Below the pieces are notes generated by a model, which made no database searches, was not told the origin of the DNA, and saw only the letters and a program-made list of their open reading frames with translations. Of a DNA stretch of 64,000 nucleotides, positions 321-63,935 are shown one piece after another. Position numbers and translations under genes: made by a program. This DNA comes from Gemmatimonadota bacterium (GTDB taxonomy: Bacteria; Gemmatimonadota; Gemmatimonadetes; Gemmatimonadales; Gemmatimonadaceae). Within the stretch, counting starts at the first letter, position 1. The number at the start of each line of letters is the position of its first letter. The stretch is taken from assembly GCA_016704465.1 (NCBI GenBank), contig JADJAD010000006.1, positions 380,021 to 444,020 of the forward strand, written 5' to 3'.

Positions 321-2690
321 ATGCGTATCCCTCTCCGCGGCGTCATCGCCCTCGCCGCCCTCGCCGCCCTTGTCTCCGATGGCTCGTGGCTCGCTGCGCA
401 GTCAGCTCCGGCCCCGCAAGCGCCAGGGCACGCGCAAGCGAGCACCGCCCGCTATGCGCGCGCCGACGCCTTCCTCCCGTGGAACGTGCAGGCGCTCGTC
501 TCGGGGAACCAGCTCGACCCTCACTGGCTCGAGAACGATCGTTTCTGGTTCCGGGGCGCCCGCGGGCTCGGCGGCGAATTCCTCGTCGTCGACCCGGTAC
601 GGGGAACGCGCGCCGTCGCCTTCGATCACGCACGGCTGGCCGCCGCGCTCTCGGTTGCCGCCGACACGGCGTACGTCGCCGAGCGGCTCCCGTTCACCGA
701 GTTCGACTTCGTGCGCAATGGTCAGGCGATTCGCTTCAACGTCGCCGACTCGGCGCGCTTCACGTGCGACATCGTTGCCTACACGTGCGCAGCGAAAGAG
801 AAGGCGACCGCCCCGGCGAAGGATGAGATCCTCTCGCCCGACGGGAGGTGGGCCGCCTTCTCGCGCAACGAGAACCTCTGGGTACGCGCGGTTGCCACCG
901 GGCAGGAGACGCAGCTCTCCACCGATGGCGAGGCCTACTGGGGATACGGCGTCGTGCCGGAGGGGTGCTGCCAGGAGATCACCAATCGCCGTGCCAAGCG
1001 AAAGGTCTGGCCCGTGCTGCGCTGGTCTCCCGATTCCAAGCGCATCGCCACCCATCGGTATGACGAACGCAGGGTGGAGCCGCTGAACCTCATCGAGACC
1101 GTCTCAGGCGGGAGGCCCAAGCTCCACAGCTACCGCTACGCCCTGCCCGGGGACTCCGTCGTCCCTACGTGGCAGCCGTATGTCTTCGACGTCGAGGCCA
1201 GGCGCGGGACCAAGATCGACATCGCTCCCGTTCCCGGATTCTTCACCTCCGCCGATTCCTCGTTCCGCGATGTGCAGTGGACGCAGGATGGCAGCTCGCT
1301 CTTCGTCACGGCGCGCAGCCGGGACTTCAAGAAGTACCAGCTGTTCCAGGTCGATCCCGCCAGCGGCACGGCGCGCCTCGTCTTCACCGACTCGGGACAG
1401 ACCTATCGTGAACTCAACCAGTTCAGCGGCGCGCCCAACTGGCGCGTGCTCAAAAACGGCAAGGAAGTGCTCTGGTGGTCCGAGCGTGACGGGTGGGGGC
1501 ACCTCTATCGCGTGGACGCCACCACGGGACGGGTGATCGCGCAAGTCACCAGCGGCCCGTGGCTTGTGCTCGACCTGCTCGCCGTCGACGAGACGCTGGG
1601 CACCGTGCACTTTACCGGCGTCGGACGCGAGCGGGGAGTCGATCCCTACTATCGCATGCTCTACCAGGTCGGCCTCGATGGCTCGGGATTCACGCGCCTC
1701 TCGGCGGAGAACGCCGATCACCAGGTGTGGGCCACGCCGTCGGGGCGCCATTTCGTCGACCTGTACTCGCGCCGCGATGCGGCTCCGGTCGGTGTCGTTC
1801 GTGCGCCTGACGGGCGCGTGCTGCAGACCATCGAGCAAGGGGACATCTCGCGCCTTCAGGCCATCGGGTGGAAGCCGCCGGTCGCGTTCAGCGCCAAGGG
1901 ACGGGATGGGGTGACCGATGTGCACGGCTATCTCTACTTCCCCACCAACTTCGACTCCACCGCCAGCTATCCGGTCGTCGACTACATCTATCCCGGCCCG
2001 CAGGTCGGCGCCGTCGCCTCGCGCTCGTTCGTCACCAGCGCCCCCGGCAATGGCCAGGCGATGGCCGAGCTGGGCTTCATCGTCTTCACCGTCGATGCGT
2101 TAGGCTCGCCGCTGCGCTCCAAGGCGTTCCACGACGCGTATTACGGCAACATGACCGACAACGGCCTCCCCGATCACATCTCGGCGATGCAGGCGCTGGC
2201 CTCCACCTATCGCCAGATGGACTTGGACCGCGTCGGGATCTACGGCCACTCCGGGGGCGGCTTCTCCGGTACCGACGCCATCCTGCGCTATCCTGAGTTC
2301 TTCAAGGTCGCCGTGTCGGGGGCGGGAAACCACGACCAGCGTGGCTACCATTTCCCGTGGGGGGAGAAGTATCACGGCTTGTTGGTGAAGAACGCGACCG
2401 GCGGAGACAACTACGACTCGCAGGCCAACCAGAACCTCGCCGGGAACCTCAAGGGGAAGCTCCTCCTGTCGTACGGCACGCTCGACGACAACGTCCATCC
2501 CAACATGACGCTCGCCGTCATCGACGCCCTCATCAAGGCCAACAAGAAGTTCGACGTATTCGTGTATCCCAACCGGAATCACTCGTATGCCGGAGAGCCG
2601 TACGCCATCCAGCAGACATGGGACTACTTCGTGCGGCACCTGCGGGGGGAGGAACCGCCGACGGATTTCGTGATTCGGCAGCCGCGGTAA
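321..2690 (+). CDS. Secreted dipeptidyl-peptidase IV / prolyl-oligopeptidase family (S9) serine peptidase
   Basis: Track ORF 264-2690. ATG 321 is preceded by GGAG and followed by the signal peptide MRIPLRGVIALAALAAL. The long N-terminal region is propeller-like. The C-terminal alpha/beta-hydrolase part has the nucleophile elbow YGHSGGGF, then GTLDDNVHP and NRNHSY. Confidence 0.9.
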   Translation: MRIPLRGVIALAALAALVSDGSWLAAQSAPAPQAPGHAQASTARYARADAFLPWNVQALVSGNQLDPHWLENDRFWFRGARGLGGEFLVVDPVRGTRAVAFDHARLAAALSVAADTAYVAERLPFTEFDFVRNGQAIRFNVADSARFTCDIVAYTCAAKEKATAPAKDEILSPDGRWAAFSRNENLWVRAVATGQETQLSTDGEAYWGYGVVPEGCCQEITNRRAKRKVWPVLRWSPDSKRIATHRYDERRVEPLNLIETVSGGRPKLHSYRYALPGDSVVPTWQPYVFDVEARRGTKIDIAPVPGFFTSADSSFRDVQWTQDGSSLFVTARSRDFKKYQLFQVDPASGTARLVFTDSGQTYRELNQFSGAPNWRVLKNGKEVLWWSERDGWGHLYRVDATTGRVIAQVTSGPWLVLDLLAVDETLGTVHFTGVGRERGVDPYYRMLYQVGLDGSGFTRLSAENADHQVWATPSGRHFVDLYSRRDAAPVGVVRAPDGRVLQTIEQGDISRLQAIGWKPPVAFSAKGRDGVTDVHGYLYFPTNFDSTASYPVVDYIYPGPQVGAVASRSFVTSAPGNGQAMAELGFIVFTVDALGSPLRSKAFHDAYYGNMTDNGLPDHISAMQALASTYRQMDLDRVGIYGHSGGGFSGTDAILRYPEFFKVAVSGAGNHDQRGYHFPWGEKYHGLLVKNATGGDNYDSQANQNLAGNLKGKLLLSYGTLDDNVHPNMTLAVIDALIKANKKFDVFVYPNRNHSYAGEPYAIQQTWDYFVRHLRGEEPPTDFVIRQPR

Positions 2691-2804
2691 GCCCAACGGA
2701 GTTTGCGAATCGGCCGACCCTAGCGCATCACGGAGCGCTCGCGCCGCTCCACCGAAGCGGGTCAGGTACAACTACAGCTGCATCACGCGCAGGCGCCTCC
2801 CACC

Positions 2805-4334: not shown

Positions 4335-4441
4335 GGCAGGACTGGGCTGTGGGAGTGGCAAACTGGAGCCGGGCGACCATTCGCGACGCCGGAGCGCTGG
4401 CCGGCACGCACCGGCGAGAACGAGACGCCGTACCGCGGCGC

Positions 4442-6440
4442 CTAACGAACGGCGCGCCCCTTCACCCGGAAGTCGAGAGCGGTATCGAAGCCGGCGCCGG
4501 GCCGGAGCTTGAGCACCACCTCAACCGCCTCGCTCATCTCGCGTGGCGCGAGCCGATCGGCGGAGCCGAGCTTGCCGGAGAATGCCACGGTGGACGCCGA
4601 CAGCGCGACGCCGGCCGAGTCCACCAGCTCGGCGGTCGGCTGCCCGCCAGCCGTCGCGATGCCGACGATGTCCAGGCGAAGCGGGCCGTAGACAGGTTGG
4701 CGCGAGACGTTGCGCAGTTGCAGCTGCAGGCGTGCAGTCCCACTGGCGGCGTCGTAGACGGGAGTTCCGGCCACCACCTCCACACGATCGGTGAGGTCCG
4801 CCTCCGTCAGGGCGCCCGGTACCGCGGTGGGAGCGCCGAGCGTGATGCGAGCGCCGTACAACTCCTGCTTGCCGCTGCGGCGATCGGCCCAAACCGCGTT
4901 GAAGGCGCCGTCTCGGTCGGCCGCAAGCCCGGTGTAGTGCCCGGCGAAGAGGTTGCGCGTGCCGTCGAACGAGAGCACGATGCGCCCGTTGGTGAGCGCC
5001 TTGTGCGCCTCGTCGCGCGCGCGGCGCACGAACTCGGGGCCGGTGAGCGCGAACCGCTCCATCGTCGAGAGCCTGGTCGCCGTGGAGTCGGGGGGACGAT
5101 TCGGGTCGTCGAAAGGGCTCAGGTTGTGCACGTAGGCGCCCGGCCCCTGGCTGGGCGGCGGACAACTTGCCGCTGACGACACGGTGTGGTTGGCGCTGAA
5201 GCGCTGGCCCCCGTCGATGGAAAAGGCGAACAGGTACTCCCAGCAGCGACGTGCCGGATCGCCGCGTCGATCGTACCAGGCGATCCCGATCTCACCGCGT
5301 GGCGCGACCGCGACCACGGGCGTCATGCGAAAGTCGGCGACACCAAGCGGCACGTTTCGTGTGTTGTCGTTGACCCGCAAGGGGGGCGACCAGCTTCTCC
5401 CCTTGTCGGTCGAGCGCGAAAACCAGATGTCGGAGTGGCCGCTGCGCGTATCGTCCCAGGTGGCATAGATGTGGTCACGATTCGGGCTGGTCGATGACGT
5501 ATCGGCGACGACGATGGGCAGGCTGAACGCGCGGGGGAACTCGCCGCGCCGCGCCGGCCAGATATGCGGACCGAAGTCGAACACCTTCTCAGGGGGCGAG
5601 AAGGTCTTCGCACCGTCGGTCGACCGGCGCACGAACATGGGGAGCCTCTCGTTGCGCGGGTCGCCGAGGCGGATTCCAGTACTGGTAGTAGGTGACCAGG
5701 ACGGTGCCATCAGAGAGCACGACCGGCTCGGTTGCCACGAGCTTCCCGCCGGGCTGGAGGTCGATCAGCGTCGGATCGGAAAAGCTCTTGCCGTGATCGT
5801 CGGAGTACTGGAGGAACATGGCGTACTGGTCGCGCACGAACGAATCGTACACGTCGTTCCAGGCGAGGTAGACGCGCCCGCGATGCGGCCCCTGGCTCAT
5901 GTCGACGACGAGCCGGGCATGATCGGGCTGCACCGAGGGATGAATTTCGGTGGGGCCGTCCCACGTCCACGCATCGCCGGTGGTCGTCCAGATGCGGATC
6001 GCCGCCGGCTGCGACGCCTCGGGCCCGCTCATCGCGCGCGCGAAGCTCCCGCCAATGACGCATTGCATCACGTAGAAGCGCCCGTCGGGGCCGACGACGA
6101 CCATCGGGTCGAAGGCGCCGGCTGTGTAACCAGGCAGGCTCACGGTGACCCATGTGTTCCCGCCGTCCCGGGACACCATGGTCGCGGAATGTCGGCCGCC
6201 CGTCCCGCCGTCACCCGAGCCCACCTGCGCCACGGCGACCATCACGTTCGGGGTGGTGGGACTCACCGCCACCCACATTTCGTTGTACTCGCCCGGCACG
6301 AGCCGGCGGTTCGGCCCGACCGACACCGTTGACGGCGTTGCCGCTGGCGGCGGCTGCGCCGCTGGCACCGAGCTCCCGAGCAGGGTCAGCGCGACGAGCG
6401 TGACGCACGGTGCGACTTGCGGGAACCGGGCAGTGTGCAT
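4442..6440 (-). pseudogene. BNR/sialidase-like beta-propeller exoprotein, interrupted by one frameshift near 5660-5675
   Basis: Track ORFs 5589-6887 and 4442-5710 overlap. They read ...SDGTVLVTYYQYWNP and then, in another frame, ...LGDPRNERLPMFVRRSTDGAKTF. Asp-box-like motifs are SRDGGNTW, SDDHGKSF, STDGAKTF and STDKGRSW. The start ATG 6440 (MHTARFPQVAPCVTLVALTLL, signal peptide) is preceded by GGAGA. Confidence 0.6.
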
Positions 6441-7227: not shown

Positions 7228-7234
7228 CCGCGCT

Positions 7235-9199: not shown

Positions 9200-9210
9200 C
9201 GGTCGGCGCC

Positions 9211-12966: not shown

Positions 12967-14010
12967 GTGACTCTTCGCATCTCGCGCGTCACCCTGCTCA
13001 CGCTGATTGTGGCCGCTGCCGCGCTGCATCCCCACCAGCTCGCGGCGCAGGACAGTACCGCGGCGCCTGGCACCGGCGTCTGGCGCAACTATGACTTTGT
13101 TCGCGGCGACAGCATCTGGTACGCCAGCGACTTCCGCGATGAGCGTGTGGGTCGCTTTCCGGCCAGCCAGCTGGAATTCGTGAGCGGGAACATGGAGATC
13201 GTCGAGCGGAACGGCGCAAAGCTGCTTGAAGCCAAGAGCGCGGCGGTGGTGCGTATCCCCCTCCCAACCGAACTTCCTGCGCAATATTCCGTCGAGTTTC
13301 GGCTGGAGATCGGTGCGGCCAATTTCTTTACCAGCCTGTACAGCTCGCCGCACGAGGGGTCGAACGGACGTTACGCCACGGACTACGTGCACCTGTACTC
13401 ACGTCCGGGCATTTACCGCGGCTCGGCGGAGCGTTCGGCCGCCACGGAGCGCTCGTTCGTCAAGAACATGGTGCCGATTCGCCTGCAGGTTGACGGCGAG
13501 TACGCCATTCTTTACGTGGGCTCGACACGTGTGGGCATGGTGCCTAACGCGAATTTCGCCCGAAGCAAGACGCTGCAGCTCTCAATGAACGGGCAACCGG
13601 GGCGCGAAACGTACCTGAGTGACATCGTGGTTGCCGTGGGGTTGGATCCGCTGTACGAAACGCTCCTGAAGACGGGGGAAGTCACGACGTATGGCCTCTA
13701 CTTCGACGTCGACAGCGACCGTCTGCGTCCGGAATCAACGCCGCAGCTCGACGCGCTCACCAAGATGCTGACCGATCACGCGGATCTCACAGTCGCGATT
13801 GAAGGTCACACCGATGCGACAGGCGACGACGCACACAATCAGTCATTGTCCGAGCGACGGGCGGCAGCAGTCGTTGCATATCTCACGACGAATGGAATCG
13901 CGGCGGCTCGGCTCGCGGCGGTTGGCAAAGGAGAATCGGTGCCCGTGGGAGACAACGGGACTGCGTTGGGTCGAGCGCAGAACCGACGCGTCGTGATTCG
14001 CAAACAGTAG
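12967..14010 (+). CDS. OmpA-family (peptidoglycan-associated) protein with unknown N-terminal domain
   Basis: Track ORF 12748-14010. GTG 12967 follows GGAG and gives the signal-like VTLRISRVTLLTLIVAAAAL. The C-terminal OmpA_C domain reads TVAIEGHTDATGDDAHNQSLSERRAAAVVAYL...NRRVVI. Confidence 0.8.
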   Translation: MTLRISRVTLLTLIVAAAALHPHQLAAQDSTAAPGTGVWRNYDFVRGDSIWYASDFRDERVGRFPASQLEFVSGNMEIVERNGAKLLEAKSAAVVRIPLPTELPAQYSVEFRLEIGAANFFTSLYSSPHEGSNGRYATDYVHLYSRPGIYRGSAERSAATERSFVKNMVPIRLQVDGEYAILYVGSTRVGMVPNANFARSKTLQLSMNGQPGRETYLSDIVVAVGLDPLYETLLKTGEVTTYGLYFDVDSDRLRPESTPQLDALTKMLTDHADLTVAIEGHTDATGDDAHNQSLSERRAAAVVAYLTTNGIAAARLAAVGKGESVPVGDNGTALGRAQNRRVVIRKQ

Positions 14011-14028: not shown

Positions 14029-15465
14029 ATGAACCGCCTGTTCACCGCCTGGCTGCTCGCTGCCCTGCTCCTCCCCGCGCCCTCCCTTGCCCAGCAGAAG
14101 GAGACGTTCGACGCCTGGGCGCCGCAGCGTGAAATGATCCGCCGAGGACAGCAGGCCGTCTTCATGTGCAACGGACTCTTCACCTCCAACCGAACGCTGG
14201 AGCAGGTCTTCGCGCAGGAACTGGCGTTCTTCCCCGAGCCGATCGGGACGCCGCGGGGTGGTGACTACCTGGTCGACAAGGCGCGGAAAGCGGTGGCCAT
14301 CGGGTCGCCATGGAGCGGAGCGCCGGTCATGCGCGCCGCGTTCCGCGAGGGACTGGGCTGCGTCGTCATGTCGCCGGATCAGGGCTTCGAGGACATCGAC
14401 GCACTCCCGATCCTGAAAACGCCGCCGCTGGCCGGCGACCCGGCCACCATCCCGTGGCCCAACGGGGACCTGGTGAAGAAGCAGCCCCTCCCCGCGAACG
14501 TGGACGCGGCAGCGTTGCAAGCGGCATCGGATTGGGCGTTCAACCGGCCGACGCCCGAGCAGGTCACGCTGAGCCTCATGGTCATCCAGAACGGCCAGAT
14601 CATCCACGAACGGTATGCCCCGGGCGTGGACATGCACACCCGCACGCGCACCTGGTCCACGGCCAAGAGTATCGCCGGGACGCTCATCGGCATCCTGGTA
14701 GACCAGGGAGAGCTGCGCCTCGACGAACCCCTTGGCTTCGCCTGGCAACCGAAGGCGCTGCTGTCCGAGAGCGACCCGCGGAACGCCATCACGCTCCGGC
14801 ACGTGCTGAACATGTCGAGCGGGCTGTACCCCATCGACAACGCTGGACTCGAGTACGCCACGGGCTCGGGCCTGTCGTACTGGGCGGGGACCAGCTCCGT
14901 GCAGGGCGCGCTCCACAAGGCGCTGGTGCGCACGCCCGGCACCGTGTGGGACTACGAGAACTACGAGACGCTGCTGGCGGTCTACAAGATGAAGCAGGCC
15001 ATCGGCGACCCGCAGGCGTACCTGGAATTTCCCCGCAAGGCGCTGCTGGACAAGCTCGGGATGCGCAGCACGCTGCTCAGCACCGACCGCTTCGGCGACT
15101 TCATCCTCAGCAGCCAGGTCTACACCAACGCCCGTGACCTGGCGCGACTCGGCATCCTCTACCAGCAGGGCGGCATGTGGAACGGTGAGCGCATCCTGTC
15201 CAAGGAGTGGATCGACTTCGAGCGCACGCCGGCGCCGGCCACCGCGAAGATCGGCAATGCCTACGGCGGCCAGTGGTGGCTCGTCCCCGACAACCGGAAG
15301 GGCGAGGTACCGGCGGACGCGTATACCACCGCGGGCAATCGTGGCCAGTACGTGATCGTGGTCCCCTCGAAGCACCTGGTCATCGTCCGCCGCGGGCTCG
15401 ACTGGGGGCGCCAGGGTTTCGACCAGTGGGGGATCACGCGCGAGGTGTTGAAGGCGATTCGTTAG
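14029..15465 (+). CDS. Beta-lactamase-fold serine hydrolase (class C / DD-peptidase-like)
   Basis: The signal peptide is MNRLFTAWLLAALLLPAPSLA. The SxxK motif is in WSTAKSIAGTL. Length is 478 aa. Confidence 0.85.
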   Translation: MNRLFTAWLLAALLLPAPSLAQQKETFDAWAPQREMIRRGQQAVFMCNGLFTSNRTLEQVFAQELAFFPEPIGTPRGGDYLVDKARKAVAIGSPWSGAPVMRAAFREGLGCVVMSPDQGFEDIDALPILKTPPLAGDPATIPWPNGDLVKKQPLPANVDAAALQAASDWAFNRPTPEQVTLSLMVIQNGQIIHERYAPGVDMHTRTRTWSTAKSIAGTLIGILVDQGELRLDEPLGFAWQPKALLSESDPRNAITLRHVLNMSSGLYPIDNAGLEYATGSGLSYWAGTSSVQGALHKALVRTPGTVWDYENYETLLAVYKMKQAIGDPQAYLEFPRKALLDKLGMRSTLLSTDRFGDFILSSQVYTNARDLARLGILYQQGGMWNGERILSKEWIDFERTPAPATAKIGNAYGGQWWLVPDNRKGEVPADAYTTAGNRGQYVIVVPSKHLVIVRRGLDWGRQGFDQWGITREVLKAIR

Positions 15466-15602
15466 GCGGGCACGGCCGGCGCGACCGTACGAGAAGCAGC
15501 CTGTTCCTTCAGCCGGTCTCGAGCACCAGTCGCGCCATTGTCACCTGCCGAATGCCGTTCTCGACCGGTGACGTCGGCGATGGTGGACGGGTCACTCGTT
15601 GC

Positions 15603-16211: not shown

Positions 16212-16314
16212 CGGCGGTCACGATCGACGACCGACACGCTGTTCCGTACGATCGCGTCGCAACGCCAGCGGTCGCGCCGGGCTGACTGGCATCGGCGATG
16301 CACGCACCCGCCGC

Positions 16315-17571
16315 CTAACGCCGCACCTCGTACCGCCGAAACCCGAAGCCCAACCGCTTCGCCGCCGGGTGCTGGATGGGGACGGCGACGCCGAGGCTCC
16401 CATCCTGCAGGAACGACATCCCCAGGTACTCGCCCGCGGCGCTGCGCACGGTCGCCGTGTCTGGAGGAAAGCCCCCTTCGAACGCCTCCGGACGAAACAC
16501 GGACGCGCGCGCGACCCGCGGCGCCGAGTCACCCGCGGACTCAATCCACGCCACGGAGGCCGTCAGGCTGTCGCCCATGCCGGTGAACCAGGTCGCGGCG
16601 AGCTGGCCGTCGCCACGTGCAATGAGATAGGGGAAGTACGTCACGGCACTGTCGCGGGCGATTTCCCAGGTAGTCCATGTGGCGCCCTGGTCCCGCGAGC
16701 GCGCCAACCACATCGCCCGCTCATGCGCCCACAACAGGAAGAGTGCGCCCGTCGAATCCCAGGCGACGGGTTCGACCCAGCGCGGCTGCGGCGCCTCGCT
16801 CCAGGTCGGGGGATTGGTCGTCGTGTCGCGCATCGCCTGCCACGCCCTCGTGCCAGGGGGGGTGCGCTTGGTCCAGGTCGCACCGCGATCGGTGGAGACA
16901 AAGAGCCAGTCCTCGCCAGCATTGAACGAGTTGCCGGAGACGGAGATCGGAACAACGCGGGCCGCCAGCTCCCCGGTCGGGCCGATGGCGAAGTGGCTCG
17001 ACCCTCCCATCGGGTGAATGCGCGACAGTTCGGTCCAGGTGCGCCCGCCGTCGACGCTGCGCACGTGCGTGACGCCGGCACCGTCGTTCCAGATGGCGTG
17101 CGCGCTGTTCGTCGCCGAGACATCGATCCACGGGCGATCGTCGAGGCGCGTGTCGGAGAGCTGCTGCCACTGCCAGGTCGCACCGCCATCGCGGCTGGTC
17201 GCGAGATCGATGCGCGTCCCCACGGACTCCGTGCGGTCGAAGCTCATGTGGAGGAAGTACAACGTGCTGTCGGGTCCCACGGCAAGCTCTACATCGGAGT
17301 TGCCGACCGCACCGTCAGCGCGAGTGCCGATGTTGACGGTCGCCCACGAGTGACCATTGTCGTCGCTGCGATAGAGGTGCGGCACGGTGTCGCCGTAGCC
17401 GGCGACGAAGATGCTGCCCGACGGGTGCTGCACCACCATGGGCTCCCGACCAAGCCGATTCACGAACTCGCTGGAGTCAACAAGGACGAGCGATGGGGTC
17501 GCTGGGACGGCGGGAGCGCGATCGCCGCACGCGGCGACGCAGAGAACGGCGATGCTCAGCAGGCCACGCAT
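16315..17571 (-). CDS. BNR (Asp-box) repeat beta-propeller lipoprotein, sialidase-like fold
   Basis: The lipobox is MRGLLSIAVLCVAAC. Five Asp-boxes are present: SDDNGHSW, SRDGGATW, SVDGGRTW, STDRGATW and SRDQGATW. Confidence 0.8.
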   Translation of the reverse strand: MRGLLSIAVLCVAACGDRAPAVPATPSLVLVDSSEFVNRLGREPMVVQHPSGSIFVAGYGDTVPHLYRSDDNGHSWATVNIGTRADGAVGNSDVELAVGPDSTLYFLHMSFDRTESVGTRIDLATSRDGGATWQWQQLSDTRLDDRPWIDVSATNSAHAIWNDGAGVTHVRSVDGGRTWTELSRIHPMGGSSHFAIGPTGELAARVVPISVSGNSFNAGEDWLFVSTDRGATWTKRTPPGTRAWQAMRDTTTNPPTWSEAPQPRWVEPVAWDSTGALFLLWAHERAMWLARSRDQGATWTTWEIARDSAVTYFPYLIARGDGQLAATWFTGMGDSLTASVAWIESAGDSAPRVARASVFRPEAFEGGFPPDTATVRSAAGEYLGMSFLQDGSLGVAVPIQHPAAKRLGFGFRRYEVRR

Positions 17572-19397: not shown

Positions 19398-20909
19398 TCA
19401 CGGCACCCGCACTTCCAACACCCGGCCGCGATACGCGCGTGGGTCGACCGCTGCCACGCGCTTTGTCATCCGCTCGCTGGCCACGAGCGACGTGATTTCT
19501 ACGTCGACCGGTGCCAGCGAGGGGAGCGCCACGTGCACGGGCGTGATGCCCTGCGAGTCGTATCCGCCCCCGGTGTCCACGAGCCGCGCGCCGAGCAGGC
19601 GTCGAGTGCCCGCGACATACACGCGCACCTCGCTTCCGGCCCGCGTCGCCCGGCCGCGCGCATCACGCACCGCCACCTGCAACGACCGCGCAGCGACGCT
19701 GCCGGGCAGCGTACTCCGGAACAACGGGTGTGTGCCGGCCGTGTGGTTGTTGGTGAGGGCGAGGTCGAGGTCGCCGTCGCGGTCGAAGTCGGCCCACGCC
19801 ACGCCGTGGCTTCCGTTGTTGATCGCGATGGCGGGTGGCATGACGTTGACGAAGCGGTCGCTACGGTTATGGAAGAAGTGGTCGGGGGTGTCGCGCTCAC
19901 CGGTGAGGTACGACACGACGAACAGGTCGAGCCGTCCGTCATGGTCAGCGTCGCCCCAGGCGGCACTGACAGAGTGATAGTCGCCCGCCAGCCCCACCGA
20001 CTCGGCGACGTTGGTGAAGCGAGCGCCGTCGTCGCGATACAGGGCATCGGGGCCATAGTTGGCGACGAAGAGGTCGAAGTCGCCGTCGTTGTCGAAGTCC
20101 CCGAGCGCGGGTCCCACGCCGCCCAGGTCGGCGGCGCGGCCCCGTTCGGACAGGCCGAGCGAGTCGGCCACGTCCATGAAGCGCCCGCCAACGTTGCGGT
20201 AGAAGCCGTTGGCGTCGCCGTCCTGGTTGGCCACGAACGCGTCCAGGTCGCCGTCCTGCTCCCAGTCCCACCAAGTCACGCCAACGGTCTTGCGCAGGTC
20301 GGCGATGCCGAGCGCTGCGGCCACATTGGTGAAGCGCCCGCCGTCGTTGCGGTACAGGGCGTTCGGGCGATCGCGGAAGGCGACGAACAGGTCGACGTCG
20401 CCGTCGTTGTCGTAGTCGATGAAGGCAGGCTGGCGGGTGGTACCGCGATCGATCAGGCCTACGACTGGCGCCACGTCGCCGAATCGCGCCCCGCCGCCCG
20501 GATTGCGATACAGCTTGTTAGGCACGGTCGCTGCAGGGGTGAAGCCGACGTACAGGTCGGCGTGCCCGTCGGCATCGAAGTCGCCCCACGCCGCGGCGCG
20601 CACCTCGAGCGAGTCGTCCAGGCCCAGCGCGGCGGCCACGTCGGTGAACGTGCCGCCGTCGTTGCGATAGAGCCGGGCACGCACGCCGCCGCGGAAGCCG
20701 ACATACAAGTCAAGGTCGCCATCGTTGTCGAAGTCGGCCCACGCGTTCGGCTGGCCGCCCGGGGTGACGAACAGCTCGGGTTGTACCGACTCGAAGGCGG
20801 GCATGACGACCGCGTCTCCCCCCAACATTGGGACCATCGTCACGCCAGCCCCAGGGCGCGACACGCCGCCCCCGCAGGCGGTGAGCATCGCGCATGCAAT
20901 CACAAACAT
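19398..20909 (-). CDS. FG-GAP/VCBS-repeat protein with ASPIC/UnbV-like C-terminus (CRTAC1-like), lipoprotein
   Basis: Track ORF 19398-20972. The start MFVIACAMLTAC is at 20909. There are seven repeats of the type DFDNDGDLDLYV / GDFDADGHADLYV / DYDNDGDVDLFV. Confidence 0.85.
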   Translation of the reverse strand: MFVIACAMLTACGGGVSRPGAGVTMVPMLGGDAVVMPAFESVQPELFVTPGGQPNAWADFDNDGDLDLYVGFRGGVRARLYRNDGGTFTDVAAALGLDDSLEVRAAAWGDFDADGHADLYVGFTPAATVPNKLYRNPGGGARFGDVAPVVGLIDRGTTRQPAFIDYDNDGDVDLFVAFRDRPNALYRNDGGRFTNVAAALGIADLRKTVGVTWWDWEQDGDLDAFVANQDGDANGFYRNVGGRFMDVADSLGLSERGRAADLGGVGPALGDFDNDGDFDLFVANYGPDALYRDDGARFTNVAESVGLAGDYHSVSAAWGDADHDGRLDLFVVSYLTGERDTPDHFFHNRSDRFVNVMPPAIAINNGSHGVAWADFDRDGDLDLALTNNHTAGTHPLFRSTLPGSVAARSLQVAVRDARGRATRAGSEVRVYVAGTRRLLGARLVDTGGGYDSQGITPVHVALPSLAPVDVEITSLVASERMTKRVAAVDPRAYRGRVLEVRVP

Positions 20910-28314: not shown

Positions 28315-28366
28315 CGAACGCCAGGCCGCCTCGCGCGGCCGCCGTTCGCCTGGAGAGAGGAGCTGC

Positions 28367-36914: not shown

Positions 36915-37012
36915 GCCGAACGGACGCTGCAACAGACAGCGGATCTATTGAATCGTGCGGCCTGCGGCCGCACTCTATTTGCCTCCGCTGCAGTTGAGCT
37001 CAGGCGTTAGGC
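36915..37012 (+). other. attC-like site (98 bp): GCCGAAC ... GTTAGGC
   Basis: The left arm GCCGAACGGACGCTGCAACAGACAGCGG pairs with the right arm CCGCTGCAGTTGAGCTCAGGCGTTAGGC. The central hairpin is GTGCGGCC-tgc-GGCCGCAC. The site starts 10 nt after the ORF stop. Confidence 0.55.
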
Positions 37013-37968: not shown

Positions 37969-38217
37969 GCCTAACAAGCGCTTGAGGCTGGCGCCAGCGC
38001 GCTCCGCGCGCTGGCGCTCCGTTGAAATGCGGCGCAGCTTAAGCGTAGCGTTGAGGATGTAGGATAAGTCGACGGTCGAATCCGAACCGTTCGTTGTGGA
38101 AAATTCGACGGCCACAGTTGCCCCAGGATCGACGATCGCCTCATCGATGATGGTTTCGGTATGGAGGAAATCGGATCAAGCGGCGGGGCTCGGACTTATC
38201 TTACAGCCTCGTTAGGC
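37969..38217 (+). other. Long attC-like composite (249 bp): GCGGCCTAAC ... GTTAGGCCGC
   Basis: The outer 10-mers are perfectly complementary. Internally there is a 12-bp GC hairpin (37990-38020) and a second pair of arms, GAGGATGTAGGATAAGTC (about 38054) and GACTTATCTTACAGCCTC (about 38193). This may be two sites enclosing an ORF-less cassette. Confidence 0.4.
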
Positions 38218-39106: not shown

Positions 39107-39147
39107 CCCGCCGCGGCCTAACGGTAGTTGGAGCAGACGGCGGAACC

Positions 39148-41389: not shown

Positions 41390-41450
41390 GCCTAACCACT
41401 CGGTTGAGCCGACTTGCCTTCGGCAAGCGGCTCACCTCGGACGGTTCGAC
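41390..41450 (+). other. attC-like site (61 bp): GCCTAAC ... GTTCGAC
   Basis: The sequence is GCCTAACCACTCGGTTGAGCCGACTTGCC-ttc-GGCAAGCGGCTCACCTCGGACGGTTCGAC, an imperfect palindrome with bulged bases that starts 42 nt after the ORF stop. Confidence 0.55.
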
Positions 41451-48455: not shown

Positions 48456-48764
48456 TGGACCGTGTTCCATCCGCCCCGCGGCAGCGGGTGAGCGGGGCTG
48501 CGGCCCGTCCTGATCCTCAGTCACGACGTCGTCAACGCGCGCCCCGGGACGGCCATCGCCTTCGCCCGCACCAGCCAACCGCAGCAGGCGGGGTTTTCCC
48601 TCAGGCTGGAGTCGGCCGGCGTGAACCTCCCGAAGCGCTCGTCGGTAAAGAGCAGCCAGATTCGCACGATCGCTGCGGAACGAATCGGCCGGCGCATCGC
48701 GCGTGCCTCACACGAGGAACTGGCGCAAGTGCCCGAAGGGCTCAAAGAGATTCGTGGCGCCTAA
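48456..48764 (+). pseudogene. MazF/PemK-family toxin remnant (no start codon, in-frame TGA at 48489)
   Basis: The frame reads WTVFHPPRGSG*AGLRPVLILSHDVVNARPGTAIAFARTSQPQQAGFSLRLESAGVNLPKRSSVKSSQIRTIAAERIGRRI. It begins 3 codons after the TetR stop, and there is no antitoxin gene upstream. Confidence 0.5.
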
Positions 48765-48936
48765 CGGGCGCTGGGGCAGACGCGGGCACGACTGACTCGT
48801 GCGCCTTCGGGGCGCACTCGATATGACGCCCGCGCTGCTCAACGTGGACGTCTACCCCGCTTCCGACTGGGGTTGCCACCGCAGGTCGATGTCCGGCATG
48901 GCCGACTAGCAGTTCACCCCCGACTTCGAACCGGAA

Positions 48937-49712: not shown

Positions 49713-51260
49713 TCAGGTCGCCGCCGCGGCCGCACTCCCGCGCCGCCGCTCCAACTCGACCCGCACGTCGTGCGCGCGCTCCTCCGTGATCGGATACGTC
49801 GCAATCGCCCAAATCGCGATCCCCGAGGTGAGGAATGGAATGAAGGCATCGCAGATACGCATGAGCACGATGGTCTGCGCGCTTTGCGCCCCCGCCAGCT
49901 CCACGCTGAAACCGGTCGCGTTCAACAGGAACCCACCCATCGCCAGCGCGGCCGCCATGCCGAGCTTCACGACCCACCAGAAGATCGAGCCGAACATCCC
50001 CTCGCGCCGCTGGTGCGTCTGCAGTTCATCCACGTCCACGACGTCGGCGATCATCGAACCCATGAGGGTGAACAGCCCGCCCAGGCCGAACGCGATCAGC
50101 GGGGCCGGCAGGAGGAGGAGCAGCGGATACTGCGGGTCGTAGCACAACCACTTGAGCGCATATCCCACCATCGACACGCCGGTGGACACATAGAAGGCCG
50201 TGCGCTTGCCGACGCGGGTGCTGAGCCACGTGATGAAGAAGATCACCAGGAAGGTGGAAGCCGCGCCTAACGTTCCCGAGTAGCCCGCATACTTCGCCCC
50301 CAGCTCCTGGTTGCCGCCGAACACGTAGTAGATGATCACGTAGAACTGGAACGACGAGATCATGATGAAGCCGTTGAACACCAGGAACGTCGCCGCGCAC
50401 AGCTTGATGAACGGCTTCGACTTGAGCGTCGTCCCGAATCCCTTCGAAAACTCGGCCAGGTTGCGGCGCATGGCCCCCCAGCGGCTCTCGACCCGCGCCT
50501 GCTGCTCGGCGGTGACCGCGGCGTGCTGAAAGCGCTCGAGCAGGAAGATCGCGGGCAGGATACCGATGGCGATCGTCATGATCCCGATGCCCACCGCCAG
50601 CCACCGCGCGCCCTCGACCTGTGTGGGATACCAGTCCTTGTTGGACATGATCCACAGGAACCACGGCGACACGAGGTACGCGAGCTGGCCGATGAAGTTC
50701 TGCACCCCCATGAGGCGGGTGCGCTCGTGATAGTCGGGGGTGAGCTCGTAGCCTAACGCGACCCACGGCGTGGCAAAGATGGTGTAGGCCAGGTAGAAGA
50801 TGATCGACCCGACCAGGAAGAACCAGAAGTAGAAGGTCTCGCTGCGGCCGAGCGGCAGCTGCCAGAGCAGCGCGTAGATGATCCCGGCCGCGATCGCACC
50901 AATGAAGATGTAGGGTCGGCGTCGCCCCCACCGCGAGCGCGTGTTGTCCGAGATGTACCCCATGAGGGGATCGGTGAGCGCGTCGGTGATGCGCGGTAGC
51001 GCGCCCAGTAGCCCGACGAGGGCCGGGTTCATCCCCAGCCCCAGGTTCAGCACGATGACCATGCCGCCAATGGCTGCTGCGAGCATGTTGTTGACGAACG
51101 CTCCCATGCCGTACGCGATCTTGCGCGGGAACGAGATACGGTCCTCGGGCGCGGTCTCGAAGTGGACGGCATGCTCCGCCGTCCGACCGATGCCGAGCTT
51201 CGCGTGCCAGGCGGCGACGGCGCGTTGCGCGAGTGTCCGGCGCGGGGTGCGCGCGCTCAT
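49713..51260 (-). CDS. MFS transporter, glycoside-pentoside-hexuronide (GPH):cation symporter type
   Basis: Inner part of track ORF 49713-51392. The start ATG 51260 overlaps the GH16 stop (ATGA). There are 12 TM-like segments. The motif LGALPRITDALTDPLMGYISDNTRSRWGRRRPY is typical of MelB/GPH. Confidence 0.85.
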   Translation of the reverse strand: MSARTPRRTLAQRAVAAWHAKLGIGRTAEHAVHFETAPEDRISFPRKIAYGMGAFVNNMLAAAIGGMVIVLNLGLGMNPALVGLLGALPRITDALTDPLMGYISDNTRSRWGRRRPYIFIGAIAAGIIYALLWQLPLGRSETFYFWFFLVGSIIFYLAYTIFATPWVALGYELTPDYHERTRLMGVQNFIGQLAYLVSPWFLWIMSNKDWYPTQVEGARWLAVGIGIMTIAIGILPAIFLLERFQHAAVTAEQQARVESRWGAMRRNLAEFSKGFGTTLKSKPFIKLCAATFLVFNGFIMISSFQFYVIIYYVFGGNQELGAKYAGYSGTLGAASTFLVIFFITWLSTRVGKRTAFYVSTGVSMVGYALKWLCYDPQYPLLLLLPAPLIAFGLGGLFTLMGSMIADVVDVDELQTHQRREGMFGSIFWWVVKLGMAAALAMGGFLLNATGFSVELAGAQSAQTIVLMRICDAFIPFLTSGIAIWAIATYPITEERAHDVRVELERRRGSAAAAAT

Positions 51261-52045
51261 GCGCGCACGTACACGCGGACCCAGTCCACGAGCATCGTCT
51301 GCGGGAAGACCGTGCCACCGTCCGGCGGCCCCACGTAGCCGCCGCCGACGGCGAGGTTCAGGATGATGTAGAACGGGTGGTCGAACACCCACGCGCCGGA
51401 GACGTAGCTGCGCTTGACCTCATGGTACAGCCGACCATCGACGCGCCATTCGATCTGGTCCTCGTCCCACTCGACAGAGAAGATGTGGAAGTCGTCATCA
51501 AACCGCCCCTCGCCCAGGTCGAACCTGCGGGTCAGGGCGTTGCCCGCCGAGTAGCCGGGCCCGTGCAGCGACCCATGCACCAGGTTGGGCTCCTGCCCGC
51601 GGTATTCCATGATGTCGATCTCGCCCGCCTGCGGCCAGCCGACCTGGTCCACGTTGGCACCGAGCAGCCAGAAGGCCGGCCAGAGCCCGCGACCCGTCGG
51701 GAGCTTCATGCGCGCCTCGAACCGGCCGTACCGCTGCTCGAGCAGCCCCGCGGTGGTGAGGCGCGCCGAGGTGAAGGCACTCCCCAGGAACGACTCGGCG
51801 CGGGCGACGATCGCCAGGTTGCCCGCGCCGTCCAGCGAGGCGTTGGACGCGCGATCGGTGTCGTACTCGAGCTGCGCGTTCCCCCAGTCGGTGCCGACGT
51901 CGTAGCGCCAGTTGGCCTGGTTGGGCCGCGTCCCCGCCGCCCCGGTGAACTCATCCTCCCATGTGAGGACCCAGGGGCCGGGCGGTTCGGTGCAGCCGAC
52001 GAGGCCGGCCAGCGCGAGGACGAGCGGGAGGGTGAGTCGGCGCAT
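51257..52045 (-). CDS. GH16 endo-beta-1,3-glucanase (laminarinase-like) lipoprotein
   Basis: Inner part of track ORF 51257-52534. The start is MRRLTLPLVLALAGLVGC. Motifs: WEDEFTG, WPAFWLLG, the catalytic GEIDIMEY, and FHIFSVEW. Confidence 0.9.
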   Translation of the reverse strand: MRRLTLPLVLALAGLVGCTEPPGPWVLTWEDEFTGAAGTRPNQANWRYDVGTDWGNAQLEYDTDRASNASLDGAGNLAIVARAESFLGSAFTSARLTTAGLLEQRYGRFEARMKLPTGRGLWPAFWLLGANVDQVGWPQAGEIDIMEYRGQEPNLVHGSLHGPGYSAGNALTRRFDLGEGRFDDDFHIFSVEWDEDQIEWRVDGRLYHEVKRSYVSGAWVFDHPFYIILNLAVGGGYVGPPDGGTVFPQTMLVDWVRVYVRA

Positions 52046-52074
52046 GGACTGCACGGGAGAGGGGGACGACCCGC

Positions 52075-53313
52075 CTAACGCGGGCCCACGGAGGGAAAGA
52101 GCGATGGGTCCGCGAGCGCGGCGTCGAGGATCAGCGTCGCGGCGCCGATCGCGATGCCGCGCGGCCCCAGGGCGCTGGTGACGATCTCGGAGGTGGCCAG
52201 CGAACTCACGAAGGTTCGCCGCAGCACGGTCTCGCGGAGCGGCACCAGGAGGCGCTCGCCCATGCGGGCGATCCCCCCACCGATGATCACCGCACCGGGG
52301 TTCATCAGGTTGAGCACGTTGGCCACGGCGATCCCCAGGTAGGTGGCCGCGTCGCGAATCACGCGCTCGGCGAGCGGATCGTCCTGGAGCGCGGCGTCCT
52401 CGATGGCGCCCACCGTGAGCTCGCCACGATGCAGCACGCTGTCCGGGTAGTCCGGGAGAAGGTGCCGCGCGCGGCGCACCAGCGCCGAAGCGCCCACGAA
52501 CGTCTGCAGGCATCCGCGGTTGCCGCAGTCGCACGGATCGCCGGAGAGGTCGATCGTCAGGTGCCCGATCTCACCCGCCACCCCGCCCGCCCCACGCGCG
52601 ATGCGCCCGCCAACCATGTGCCCGGCGCCCGCGCCCGTGGCAACCTTGATGTAGGTGAAGTCCTGCTGCCCGCGTCCGGCCCCCCACCACCGCTCGGCCA
52701 ACGCGCCGAGGTTCGCATCGTTGTCCACGTGGACCGGGACGCCGAACTGCTGGCGCAGCGCCTCGAACCCAGTGCGCCCGTCCCATGCCGGGAGCACGTG
52801 CGTGGAGAGCCGCTCCTGGTGCTTGGGGTCCACCCAGCAGGGGACCGCCACGCCGATGCCGACCAGCCGGCTGCGCACCCCGCCCCACCGCGCGAGACAT
52901 CGCTCGCAGAACTCGGCGATCAGCGCACGTGTCCCCGGCGCATCCGCGCGCACCGGGAACTCGCCATGCTCCCACTCCAGCACCCGCCCGCGCAGGTCGG
53001 TGAGCGCCACCGAGACGTGCGTCGCCCCCATGTCCACACCGAGAATGACGCAGGCGTCGTCCTGGAACTCGAGCACGATCGGGCGGCGCCCTCCGCTGGA
53101 CTCCCCCTCTCCCGCTTCGCGCACCAGGCGCGTCTCCAGCAGTTCACTCACGACCTCCGAGACCGTGGAACGCGAGAGCCCCGCCTGCCGGGCAATGTCG
53201 GCACGCGAAATCGCCCGCTCGTGCCAGATGAGGCGAAGCAACGAGTGCGTGAGCGTCGCGGGACGCGCGACCTCGGCGATTCCTGTCACCTTCCCTTTCG
53301 ACGACTGGGGCAC
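52075..53313 (-). CDS. ROK-family transcriptional repressor (NagC/Mlc/XylR-like)
   Basis: The N-terminal winged HTH is ISRADIARQAGLSRSTVSEVVSELLETRLV. The ROK sugar-kinase-like body has VGIGVAVP, GAGHMVGG and the Cys cluster GDPCDCGNRGCLQT. Confidence 0.85.
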   Translation of the reverse strand: MPQSSKGKVTGIAEVARPATLTHSLLRLIWHERAISRADIARQAGLSRSTVSEVVSELLETRLVREAGEGESSGGRRPIVLEFQDDACVILGVDMGATHVSVALTDLRGRVLEWEHGEFPVRADAPGTRALIAEFCERCLARWGGVRSRLVGIGVAVPCWVDPKHQERLSTHVLPAWDGRTGFEALRQQFGVPVHVDNDANLGALAERWWGAGRGQQDFTYIKVATGAGAGHMVGGRIARGAGGVAGEIGHLTIDLSGDPCDCGNRGCLQTFVGASALVRRARHLLPDYPDSVLHRGELTVGAIEDAALQDDPLAERVIRDAATYLGIAVANVLNLMNPGAVIIGGGIARMGERLLVPLRETVLRRTFVSSLATSEIVTSALGPRGIAIGAATLILDAALADPSLFPSVGPR

Positions 53314-56070: not shown

Positions 56071-56076
56071 ACGTCC

Positions 56077-61215: not shown

Positions 61216-61268
61216 TTGAATCGGGGGCGCACCTTGCGCTGACCGCCACCCATGCGGACACTACGTAC

Positions 61269-61883: not shown

Positions 61884-61989
61884 GGAGACTGCTGCGCATC
61901 GCCCTGCGGCGTGAACGACAGAGGCCGGCGTCGGGAATCCACCCCCGCGCCGGCCTCGTCGTGTCGCTGCCTGCGTTCACTGCGCCTGC

Positions 61990-63935
61990 TTAGCGCCCTC
62001 CCGCCGCGCCGTCGGCGCGCGTGACACCGGATCCCATCCCCTTGAGGTGCTGGTCGAAGTAGGCGACGATGTCCTGGTACATCTGCATCGTGTTCTCGCG
62101 CCGGCGCACGTAGTAATTCTCGTTGGGGTAGGTCTTGAGCACGAACGGCTTGTAGTTCATCTCCAGCCGGTCGGCGAAGATGCGCAGGCTTCCGAGCGCG
62201 GGAGCGCGGCGCCCACGCCGTGCAGCAGCATCAGCGGCGTCTGGATGTCGGTGATGTTGAAGATCGGCGACGACGCCTTGTACTTCGCCTCGTTGGTGGC
62301 CAGCGGGCCGAACTCGTACTCGAGGAGCTTGAGGTGGCGCAGCTCCTGCTCCTGGATCATGTGGATCCAGTCGCCGTAGCCCGAGACCGAGACGCCAGCC
62401 TGGAAGACGCCCGGCGCAAAGGCCGCGGCGGCCAGCGTCATGCAGCCGCCGTAGCTGGTGCCGGTGATCCCCATGTGCTGGCCGTCGACGTACGGCAGCG
62501 TGCGCAGGTACTCCACCCCCGCCGTCACGTCCACGAGGTCACAGCGCCCCCAGCACCCATTGTTCGCGTCCTCGAACACTTTCCCGTATCCGGAGCTCCC
62601 CCTGATGTTAGGCAGCAGGACCGCGTAGCCGCGCATGGCGAGGTACTGCACCTCGGACTGGTACGTGTCGTTGAACGACGAGGTCGGACCGCCGTGGATA
62701 TACAGGATGCCCGGGGCCTTCTTCCCGGCTGGCAGCACCGGCTCGTACAGGTAGGCACTGACGGTGAAGCCGTCGGGGGTCTTGTAGCTGATCTTCTTCG
62801 GCCGGATGAGCGCATTGCTGATGTAGGTCGGACCGGCCGACTGCGTGAGGCGGCGGGGACTTCCGCCGGCGGCCGGCACCACGTACAGGTCGGCCGGATC
62901 GACCGGTGTCTGCATGGTGTAGGCGATGCGCGTGCCGTCGGGGGACCACTGCGCGTTGGAGACCATCCCCACGGCTCCGGGCGACGCGACGACCCGCGGC
63001 GCGCCTCCGGTCACACCAACGACCCGCACGTCCTGCATCCCGTTCCACAGCGCCGCGTACAGGATCGATTTTCCGTCTGGCGACCAGCTGGCGTCGCTCT
63101 GGTTCGCGGCCTCGGCCGCCACCTGGCGGGGCGTGCCGCCCCCCATGGGGACGGTCCAGTAGTTGACCCAGCCGCTGCGATGTGACCGGAAGAGCAGCGT
63201 GGAGCCATCGGGCGAAACGCGCGGATAGCCGAAGTTTCCGCCGGCCTGGTAGTCGAAGAAGTCGGTGTCGCTGACGATCACCCGCGGCGTGCCGCGCCCG
63301 CCGGCGTCGAGCTCCAGCACGTCATGGTCGAGCCACTTCTCGTCCATGCGCGCGTAGACGACCTTGGCACCGTCGGGCGTCCACGTCGGGAAGACTTCGT
63401 AGCGCTGGTCGGTCGTCAGTCGCTCGGCCGCACCGCTGGCCACATCGGCGATCCAGACGTCATAGCTCCCGTACTTGTCGCCGGCGAGCGCGAGCCGACG
63501 CCCGTCGGGCGACCAGGAGTACGAGTTGATGCGCCCCCCGAGCCGAGTGACCTGGCGCTCGCGCCCGTCCACCAGCGACCTGACGAACAGCTCGGCGGAT
63601 GCGCCGGCTGCAGAGATGTAGGCCAGGTGCGTGCCGTCGGGCGAATACTGCGGCTGGTGGGCCTGCAGGAAGGCGATCTCGCCCATGCGGATGTTGAGCG
63701 ACTCGGGGAAGCCGCCATCGGCGGGGATCGTCCACAGGTCGGAACCGCCGAGGGATCCTCCGATGAGGAGTTTGCGGCCGTCGGGCGCCCACTGCACCAC
63801 CCCCCCGACGACCGACCGGATCGACGTGACTTCCTCGGCGCTCAGGACCTGACGAGCACCCGACGGCTGGGCGTTTGACGATGCGGCAGCCGCCGGCAGA
63901 AGGGCGACGACGAGCAGGTGACGCGTGAGGCGCAT
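61990..63935 (-). CDS. S9-family serine peptidase with N-terminal TolB-like propeller; frame broken once near 62185-62215
   Basis: Track ORF 62157-63935. The signal is MRLTRHLLVVALLPAAAA. There are multiple WSPDG blades. The nucleophile is GITGTSYGG. After ...TPLMLLHG the family C-terminus continues in another frame (LRIFADRLEMNYKPFVLKTYPNE...VAYFDQHLKG) to TAA 61990-61992. Confidence 0.7.

Follow-up and report, generated by a model that had tools for sequence, protein, structure and literature searches.

The question raised by this locus is why one short DNA word should recur so often, in several reading frames and on both strands. The locus is a 64,000-nucleotide window (the whole stretch of DNA that was analysed; contig C6:380021-444020) from G000, the metagenome-assembled genome (MAG) of an uncultured, soil-type Gemmatimonadota bacterium, with a 6.11-Mb assembly of 22 contigs and 68% G+C. 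The named relatives of one of its genes are without exception uncultured Gemmatimonadota MAGs that carry the label Gemmatimonadaceae or Gemmatimonadales. The word is the heptamer GTTAGGC (GCCTAAC on the other strand) or, in its longer form, the octamer CGTTAGGC. A first-pass annotation made from the letters of the window had taken the word for a DNA-level signal and had proposed an uptake signal, a methylation or restriction-related site, a polar chromosome-organising motif or secondary recombination sites of an integron. To our knowledge, hyper-abundant short words are known from few bacterial groups only (Pasteurellaceae, Neisseriaceae and cyanobacteria), and their purpose is still argued. 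The literature searched for this word and for uptake sequences in Gemmatimonadota gave nothing relevant, and no such word is reported there for the phylum. Here, we report that CGTTAGGC is, with very little room for doubt, a lineage-specific hyper-abundant DNA word that is made by substitution where coding tolerates it and is then held in place. It is restricted to certain lineages, blind to orientation and maintained between species, and it reshapes both codon and peptide usage. All genomes compared are uncultured MAGs, the data on genomes other than G000 come from samples of 100-400 kb, and gene calls are our own crude calls from open reading frames (ORFs) and codon likelihood; genomes, contigs, genera and families carry our own labels.

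The 19 exact heptamers lie where the first-pass annotation had placed them, apart from a single slip (50752 should read 50751); 14 of them extend to CGTTAGGC, and the near-variants that it had listed are present as well (GTTAGGT at 28870 and 57871 (reverse complement), and GTTAGGGC at 26963). Its rough expectation of about 7 heptamers and 2-3 octamers was too high: dinucleotide-preserving shuffles of the window gave 2.78 heptamers (maximum 7) and 0.91 octamers (maximum 5), and the observed numbers were never reached. Within the called ORFs of the window there are 8 heptamers and 5 octamers, against 1.7 and 0.75 expected when synonymous codons are shuffled within genes. The excess holds for the whole genome, as the proposed comparison with Markov and codon-shuffled nulls made clear. 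G000 contains 1,326 heptamers and 1,211 copies of CGTTAGGC (608 forward and 603 reverse), which is 25-26-fold more than the 46-49 expected under order-2 and order-3 Markov models. Called ORFs hold 854 octamers, against 48.2 +/- 4.7 after synonymous-codon shuffling within each gene, which preserves each protein and the per-gene codon usage, the TTA codons contributed by the word included. A maximal-order Markov null was discarded as uninformative, every sub-word being enriched too, and these two kinds of null were used instead. The density of CGTTAGGC is 1.5-2.5 per 10 kb on most of the 22 contigs, with outlying values of 0.5-3.1 per 10 kb only on contigs C5, C22, C11 and C20 (about 10-19 kb, 1-3 copies each); owing to this even density, the excess is not a binning artefact. 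Once homopolymer runs are set aside, CGTTAGGC is the top 8-mer of G000. Such runs, of 1,711 G, 335 C and 2,423 C, were seen outside the window at C1:372794-377287, with further G runs of 36-55 nt at C1:1071587-1071680 and C4:670753-671225. Almost certainly these runs are artefacts of sequencing or assembly, and they are the reason why G7 and G8 lead the k-mer tables.

The word is sharply defined. Across 1,325 heptamer copies, C precedes the heptamer in 91% and G or A follows it in 81%; there is no further consensus, and the flanks show only a strict three-base periodicity of fixed phase. An extended element or repeat was rejected on these grounds, as nothing but codon periodicity lies past C-GTTAGGC-(G/A). 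NCA-TTA-GGC occurs 2 times against 628 for NCG-TTA-GGC, position 2 (G) is near-invariant, and intermediates like CTA or TTG show no enrichment. The idea that near-cognate words are depleted, which came from an order-1 null, was dropped because a codon-aware table shows the TTA-bearing one-off variants to be decay products.

Copies mostly encode [Ala/Ser/Thr/Pro]-Leu-Gly as nCG-TTA-GGC, and they are also found as Pro-Asn on the opposite strand, as stop codons and in other frames. A codon-likelihood classifier placed 761 of the 1,211 copies in G000 (63%) in the sense nCG-TTA-GGC class, 152 in an antisense class where the gene reads G-CCT-AAC-G (Pro-Asn) and 55-88 in each of the remaining four frame classes. 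The antisense class is real and was called with a high margin, and strand mis-calls were rejected as its source. About 80 genes of G000 end in CGT-TAG-GC and about 30 in GCC-TAA-CG (other strand), and a large share of its TAG stops are by-products of the word. The remark of the first-pass annotation that TTA is otherwise rare is borne out genome-wide, since 635 of the 1,334 TTA codons in called ORFs sit in CG-TTA-GGC; a tRNA-Leu(UAA) gene is present. Copies are uniform along gene length and Poisson-like in number per gene; a translation ramp or other position effect was rejected in view of this uniform placement. Their spacing in G000 (mean 4.9 kb, coefficient of variation (CV) 1.04) is near random, with gaps below 500 bp mildly scarce; in the congener G001 (CV 0.88) copies are spaced a little more evenly than at random, gaps below 200 bp being under-represented.

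The occupancy of sites that could carry the word synonymously bears on whether DNA, protein or codon is the level concerned. In G000, 14.2% of sense Leu-Gly sites and 14.5% of antisense Pro-Asn sites are occupied, with 1.6% for sense Val-Arg and 2.2% for antisense Leu-Thr. Saturation is far higher in the congener G001, whose 6.1 Mb contain 7,821 copies: a 400-kb sample has one copy per 715 bp (559 against 6.7 expected, or 83-fold), in a sense to antisense ratio of 57:43, and the four open frames are occupied to 56%, 61%, 47% and 31%. TTA stands at 174 of its 208 NCG-Leu-GGC sites. The encoded peptides are inflated relative to the product of residue frequencies, 1.52-fold for [ASTP]-Leu-Gly and 1.78-fold for Pro-Asn, against 0.89-1.12 in four word-less genomes. 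The word is thus a DNA-level signal, as the first-pass annotation had proposed, and neither a protein nor a codon effect: G001 has it in every open frame and in either orientation, and a related word in genome G321 lies mainly in other frames. Because the G321 word mostly reads CGG-GTT-AGG or its complement, the TTA frame in G000 is merely the cheapest home for the word and not its purpose. The co-orientation with transcription noted earlier does exist in G000 (about 4:1) but mirrors the frames that hold the word cheaply; the ratio in G001 is 57:43.

Orthologue codon alignments of six congeners show how copies arise. They differ by substitutions without length change, and an insertion footprint was accordingly rejected. 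ACG-CTG-GGC to ACG-TTA-GGC is one example; GCC-TTC-GGC and GCG-TTA-GGC, or ACG-GTC-GGC and ACG-TTA-GGC, are exchanged in either direction. Three window sites illustrate this. The word at 2098 is also found in the G010 and G007 orthologues, where G009, G004, G012 and G005 have GCC-TTC-GGC/GGG (Ala-Phe-Gly); the copies at 50265 and 50751 are common to G002, G009 having ACG-GTC-GGC (Thr-Val-Gly) at the former and GCA-TTA-GGC at the latter. At many word sites the species differ in an encoded amino acid (Ala-Phe-Gly, Thr-Val-Gly, Glu-Leu-Gly and others), which shows the force behind the word to be strong enough to change proteins. The CTG:CTC ratio at NCG-Leu-GGC is 0.46 in G000 against 0.69 in word-less genomes; CTG has thus given way to TTA somewhat more often than CTC has, in keeping with a two-transition route.

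Conservation at orthologous positions, a check that the first-pass annotation had suggested, was measured in 157 orthologous gene pairs with a synonymous codon identity of 54%. Where both species have [ASTP]-Leu-Gly, the other species has the word at 24 of 35 sites (69%) when G000 has it, and at 20 of 89 (22%) when G000 does not (odds ratio 7.5, p = 2.6e-6; the pairs are phylogenetically non-independent and the p value is indicative only). As a control, non-word 8-mers at such sites are identical in 9 of 69 cases (13%). Compositionally atypical genes carry the word at about 1.0 copies per 10 kb and the most typical genes at 2.8, a gradient that would be expected if copies build up with residence time.

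The word is not a property of the phylum. Among 401 genomes it is usually under-represented (2-60 copies, against 100-300 for a reversed control word), and enrichment is confined to parts of a single order. Each of the 13 genomes in the genus of G000 is enriched, with 1,085-7,821 copies against 160-450 for the control, as are about 10 other genera. The enrichment is found in family f1 (genera g1, g18, g21, g27, g29, g31, g32 and g36, and weakly g9 and g12) and in genus g65 of family f2. Close relatives can differ strongly: in genus g29, G231, G288 and G394 have 3,479-4,141 copies and G284 has 66 (about 60-fold), G299 has 17 against 4,469 in G295 (about 260-fold), and G049 lacks the word that is enriched in genus g65. 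On a ComEC protein tree, which is a single-gene tree with two rows misplaced on long branches, enriched genomes form several groups interleaved with others; the enrichment label changes 5-7 times in bootstrap trees, and at least two changes are forced by well-supported branches.

A scan for the 6-mer core GTTAGG showed that G321 (family f2) has 2,145 core copies of which only 54 are CGTTAGGC. Its own word is GCGGGTTAGG, with 40 copies in 99 kb against 0.1 expected (CGGGTTAGG has 58 against 0.5), and this is a dialect of CGTTAGGC. The high GTTAGG count of G207 was rejected as a further word, being explained by its low G+C of 54%, and no alternative hyper-abundant word was found in the non-enriched genomes G083, G032, G056 and G062. 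A second repeated word was seen in G321 (contigs C1-C10), TAGCCAATAG / GGCTATTGG, with 18-24 copies in 99 kb where less than 1 is expected; a longer repeat element may contain it.

Seven protein families were searched with profiles over 21 enriched and 19 other genomes (PF00145, PF03852, PF01555, PF02384, PF03772, TIGR02249 and PF16732), and none of them separates the two groups. Enrichment is not tracked by the C5 methyltransferases (PF00145), by Vsr (PF03852), by the N6_N4 methyltransferases (PF01555) or by the N6 methyltransferases (PF02384); Dam-type and other methyltransferase families were not searched. The C5 enzyme and Vsr are both absent from G009, G109, G119, G183, G283, G231, G288, G394, G289, G295 and genus g65, and several non-enriched genomes have both. 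Five enriched genomes (G119, G183, G283, G231 and G394) match none of PF00145, PF03852 and PF01555 and, as in every genome, match PF02384 only weakly and partially; neither the C5 enzyme nor Vsr occurs in G288 and G289, which do have PF01555 matches. The first-pass annotation had proposed a search for competence genes or an orphan methyltransferase. The ComEC domain (PF03772) is present in 39 of the 40 genomes (in G000 at C8:294894-295682), and G000 has at least seven prepilin-like genes, one of them a typical type IVa pilin; a DNA import machinery is thus plausibly present in G000, judging from its gene content.

For the mechanism behind the word, which we infer, the candidate that we favour is an uptake-signal-like self-recognition word for natural transformation; it fits best of the four proposed by the first-pass annotation, the other three being unsupported or refuted, and we hold it tentatively, at somewhat less than even confidence. 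A DNA receptor of the uptake machinery would favour fragments that carry the word, and recombination of the preferentially imported alleles would spread and maintain copies by molecular drive, against selection at the codon and protein levels. Receptor specificity would vary by lineage (CGTTAGGC here, GCGGGTTAGG in G321), and only some lineages would have the receptor. The reading is put forward because peptide inflation, biased frames, fewer copies in atypical genes, dialects and a lack of polarity match the signatures of uptake sequences described by Findlay and Redfield (PMC2817400) and Bakkali (PMC1939737); uptake sequences reshape the proteome and are scarcer in newly acquired genes (PMC2817400). 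The size of the excess, the origin of copies by substitution and their maintenance, the slightly even spacing in G001, the restriction to lineages and the presence of ComEC and prepilin-like genes speak for it as well. HIP1, the hyper-abundant word of cyanobacteria, is now also argued to act in DNA uptake (PMC13756078; bioRxiv 10.1101/2024.09.10.611283).

Several points weigh against an uptake signal. The organisms are uncultured, and an uptake function in the enriched lineages is what we infer from their genomes. ComEC occurs in enriched and other genomes and does not discriminate between them. The scattered enrichment on the ComEC tree needs repeated loss or horizontal transfer of a determinant, which none of the seven profiled families supplies. 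In G000 the in-frame TTA class exceeds its codon-usage baseline by a factor about 20-30 times that of the other frames, which frame-blind drive at equilibrium does not predict; this may come in part from the ease with which Leu takes the place of Phe, Val, Ile or Met and from the two-transition route that starts at CTG. No ComP-type receptor scored above the family cut-off in any enriched genome, the ComP_DUS profile (PF16732) giving only sub-threshold, generic pilin matches. The receptor of Pasteurellaceae is likewise not ComP, and the absence of ComP is therefore weak evidence. Finally, drive by a repair bias, or selection for a binding site on the chromosome, would also be expected to give every one of the comparative signatures.

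A bias of repair or gene conversion, as once proposed for HIP1, would have an enzyme resolve mismatches toward the word, which would accumulate without service to the cell. We regard this as unlikely. In its favour are the sharp definition of the word, the extreme occupancy in G001, a patchy distribution compatible with a mobile enzyme gene, the preferential loss of CTG along a two-transition path and the precedent of Elhai's HIP1 model (PMC4390886). It is opposed by the searches, in which the methyltransferases and Vsr do not track enrichment and no candidate enzyme appears among the profiled methylation and repair families, and by the need to restore all eight positions, which one mismatch enzyme would not do. 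Very-short-patch repair of the Dcm/Vsr type in particular is not supported, as the Vsr and C5 methyltransferase pair that it requires is missing from many enriched genomes. A binding site for a chromosome-organising or nucleoid protein, held by selection for genome-wide site density, would account for the conservation at orthologous sites, the even density over all contigs, the indifference to orientation and the slight avoidance of very close copies, and a function in chromosome structure has been proposed for HIP1 by Xu et al. (PMC5861425). Yet the seven-fold range of copies within one genus and the absence of the word in G284, close to G231, G288 and G394, ill suit housekeeping architecture, and the spacing in G000 is indistinguishable from random; we consider this explanation rather improbable. 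A short asymmetric word whose determinant seems to come and go between lineages would suit a methylation system, be it restriction-modification, BREX-type or another, as its recognition site. Restriction targets are, however, usually avoided in genomes and not enriched, here 25- to 80-fold, and the three main DNA methyltransferase families do not follow the word, so that this proposal of the first-pass annotation is left unsupported and is very unlikely.

A signal in RNA or translation that acts on the rare TTA codon, such as a pause or control dependent on tRNA-Leu(UAA), might be read from the predominance of nCG-TTA-GGC, its far greater enrichment over the codon baseline, the half of all TTA codons that lie in the word and the existence of the tRNA gene. 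It is rejected as hardly credible, given that 43% of the G001 copies are antisense with all frames filled, that the G321 dialect mainly uses another frame, that copies are uniform along genes and Poisson in number, and that copies in stop codons and on the opposite strand are also strongly enriched. An 8-mer at about 1 per 5 kb, a density similar to that of Chi in E. coli, could suggest a polar replication or repair motif such as Chi (RecBCD/AddAB) or KOPS (FtsK). Corrected for available sites, and with strands assigned by the GC skew, which is weak in G000, occupancy is 15.9% on the G-rich strand and 12.4% on the other, only 56:44, and in every 20-kb piece of G001 both orientations are mixed (neighbours are same-oriented 286 times and opposite 253 times). 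The polar motif of the first-pass annotation is refuted by these figures; owing to the lack of polarity, a KOPS-like motif is excluded and a Chi-like role is very unlikely, and the explanation as a whole is barely conceivable.

The integron requires separate treatment, since five of the window copies are genuine attC cores of a cassette array at about 35.4-41.5 kb that comprises an alpha/beta hydrolase, a GH16 protein, an Mrr-type nuclease, an IS3 insertion and a small-molecule methyltransferase. Arrays of this order have the heptamer as their attC core (GTTRRRY), and arrays of genomes without enrichment use the same word at a spacing of about 500-650 bp; by our estimate, the chance that an arbitrary 8-mer matches the local attC core is well below 1%. 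Could the genome-wide copies then be secondary recombination sites of the integrase, as the first-pass annotation had supposed? Copies outside the array have no inverse core, hairpin partner or attC-like flank conservation, and in-frame substitutions create them, rather than insertion or excision. The base that comes next is C for array cores but G or A for the genome-wide word (C in 7%), and 8,000 active sites within genes would be highly disruptive. Integron integrase (TIGR02249) scores above cut-off in 28 of the 40 genomes irrespective of enrichment, and the enriched G119 and G394 have none. We therefore reject secondary integrase sites as an explanation, which is unsupported and very unlikely indeed. 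The G000 integrase itself lies outside the window at C15:4689-5627 (401 bits, cut-off 265), so the array in the window has no integrase of its own nearby. A tyrosine recombinase at 32995-33924 of the window, beside an IS91-type Y2 transposase, reached only 98 bits. It is conceivable, though improbable, that the attC core CGTTAGGC, as the ancestrally commonest repeated word both of the genomes and of the cassette pool they shared, seeded an uptake specificity and that receptor bias then drove the word across the chromosome, repeatedly or by transfer of the receptor gene. Natural transformation feeds integron recombination in Vibrio (PMC12614218). If attC had seeded the specificity, natural transformation would be coupled to cassette capture; the coincidence of word and core hints at a link between transformation and cassette exchange.

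The individual copies in the window are listed in Table 1. The earlier readings of CGT-TAG as a stop were right in all four genes concerned, and so were the Leu-Gly readings at 2099, 30933, 50265 and 50751.

Table 1. Heptamer and octamer copies in the window, with the genes or elements in which they lie
Position	Strand	Form of the word	Context
2098..2105	+	CGTTAGGC as GCG-TTA-GGC (Ala-Leu-Gly)	DPP-IV/S9 peptidase gene 264-2690
4440..4447	-	CGT-TAG-GC; word gives TAG stop	gene 4442-5710(-)
13542..13549	-	CGTTAGGC, antisense; G-CCT-AAC-G (Pro-Asn) in the ORF	putative ORF 12748-14010(+)
15460..15467	+	CGT-TAG-GC; TAG stop	beta-lactamase-family gene 14029-15465(+)
16313..16320	-	CGT-TAG-GC; TAG stop	BNR-repeat gene 16315-17571(-)
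20517..20523	+	heptamer only (TGTTAGGC)	overlapping long ORFs on both strands
27329..27336	+	CGTTAGGC; nCG-TTA-GGC in putative ORF 26971-28314	6 nt past stop of GH gene 25131-27323
27939..27946	-	CGTTAGGC	shortly upstream of GH3 start at 27998
30933..30939	+	heptamer only, GTG-TTA-GGC (Val-Leu-Gly)	GH3 gene 30604-32106
37005..37012	+	attC core, R' type (CGTTAGGCC)	integron cassette array; origin separate from genome-wide copies
37969..37975	-	attC inverse core (GGCCTAAC on + strand)	after GH16 cassette
38210..38217	+	attC core (CGTTAGGCC)	precedes Mrr_cat cassette
39116..39123	-	attC inverse core (GGCCTAACG)	followed by IS3-family insertion
41390..41396	-	attC inverse core	after methyltransferase (Methyltransf_11) cassette
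48759..48766	-	GCC-TAA-CG on + strand; reverse complement of word gives TAA stop	short ORF 48492-48764(+)
50265..50272	-	ACG-TTA-GGC (Thr-Leu-Gly)	MFS_2 transporter gene 49713-51392(-)
50751..50758	-	GCG-TTA-GGC (Ala-Leu-Gly)	MFS_2 transporter gene 49713-51392(-)
52073..52080	-	CGT-TAG-GC; TAG stop	ROK regulator gene 52075-53313(-)
62607..62613	+	heptamer only (TGTTAGGC), antisense; CCT-AAC (Pro-Asn) in the gene	gene 62157-63935(-)

The putative ORF 26971-28314 overlaps two neighbours, the GH gene 25131-27323 at its end and the GH3 gene 27998-30595 at its start. It has counterparts of 78-83% identity in G004, G009 and G002, and the gene model for 25131-28314 is tentative. In G000, ARAGORN also called a tRNA-SeC(tca) and one tRNA-like sequence with a four-base anticodon (accg), which is possibly spurious.

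The force that writes this word is extreme: in one species half of the compatible sites have been converted, proteins have been altered and the use of the rarest codon is largely explained. TTA and TAG usage in these genomes should accordingly not be taken as translational regulation. The on/off contrasts between relatives (G284 against G231, G288 and G394; G299 against G295; G049 against genus g65) make the word-creating machinery testable by gene content, and the second lineage with its different but related word adds a further contrast. The word is also a sharp taxonomic and binning marker for these MAGs.

Among known systems, Chi and KOPS are like CGTTAGGC in length and density, but the present word has no strand polarity and a far higher excess. 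The attC core GTTRRRY is identical to the heptamer in the arrays of the order, the window included, whereas the genome-wide copies have none of the other attC features, have another 3' neighbour, lie in frame in conserved genes and are independent of IntI. HIP1 (GCGATCGC) is likewise an over-represented 8-mer that is propagated by substitution and conserved at orthologous sites; it is 15- to 300-fold over-represented, some lineages lack it or use an alternate word, and its function is debated (PMC5861425, PMC4390886, PMC13756078). Unlike HIP1, CGTTAGGC is not a palindrome (its reverse complement is GCCTAACG), it occurs in parts of one order and is not spread across a phylum, and no cognate orphan methyltransferase tracks it among PF00145, PF01555 and PF02384. 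The uptake signal sequences (USS) of Pasteurellaceae and the DNA uptake sequences (DUS) of Neisseriaceae differ from CGTTAGGC, whose preferential uptake is proposed from genomes of uncultured organisms, for which no ComP-like receptor was found and which is patchy even within a genus-level group. In addition, CGTTAGGC does not form inverted pairs that serve as terminators, and its favoured frame uses the genome's rarest codon, while for USS the frames go with preferred codons (PMC2817400). What it has in common with USS and DUS is an asymmetric word of 8-12 nt in thousands of copies on both strands without replication polarity, which is written into genes by substitution with a frame bias, inflates the encoded peptides, is scarcer in atypical or new genes and is specific to lineages, with dialects.

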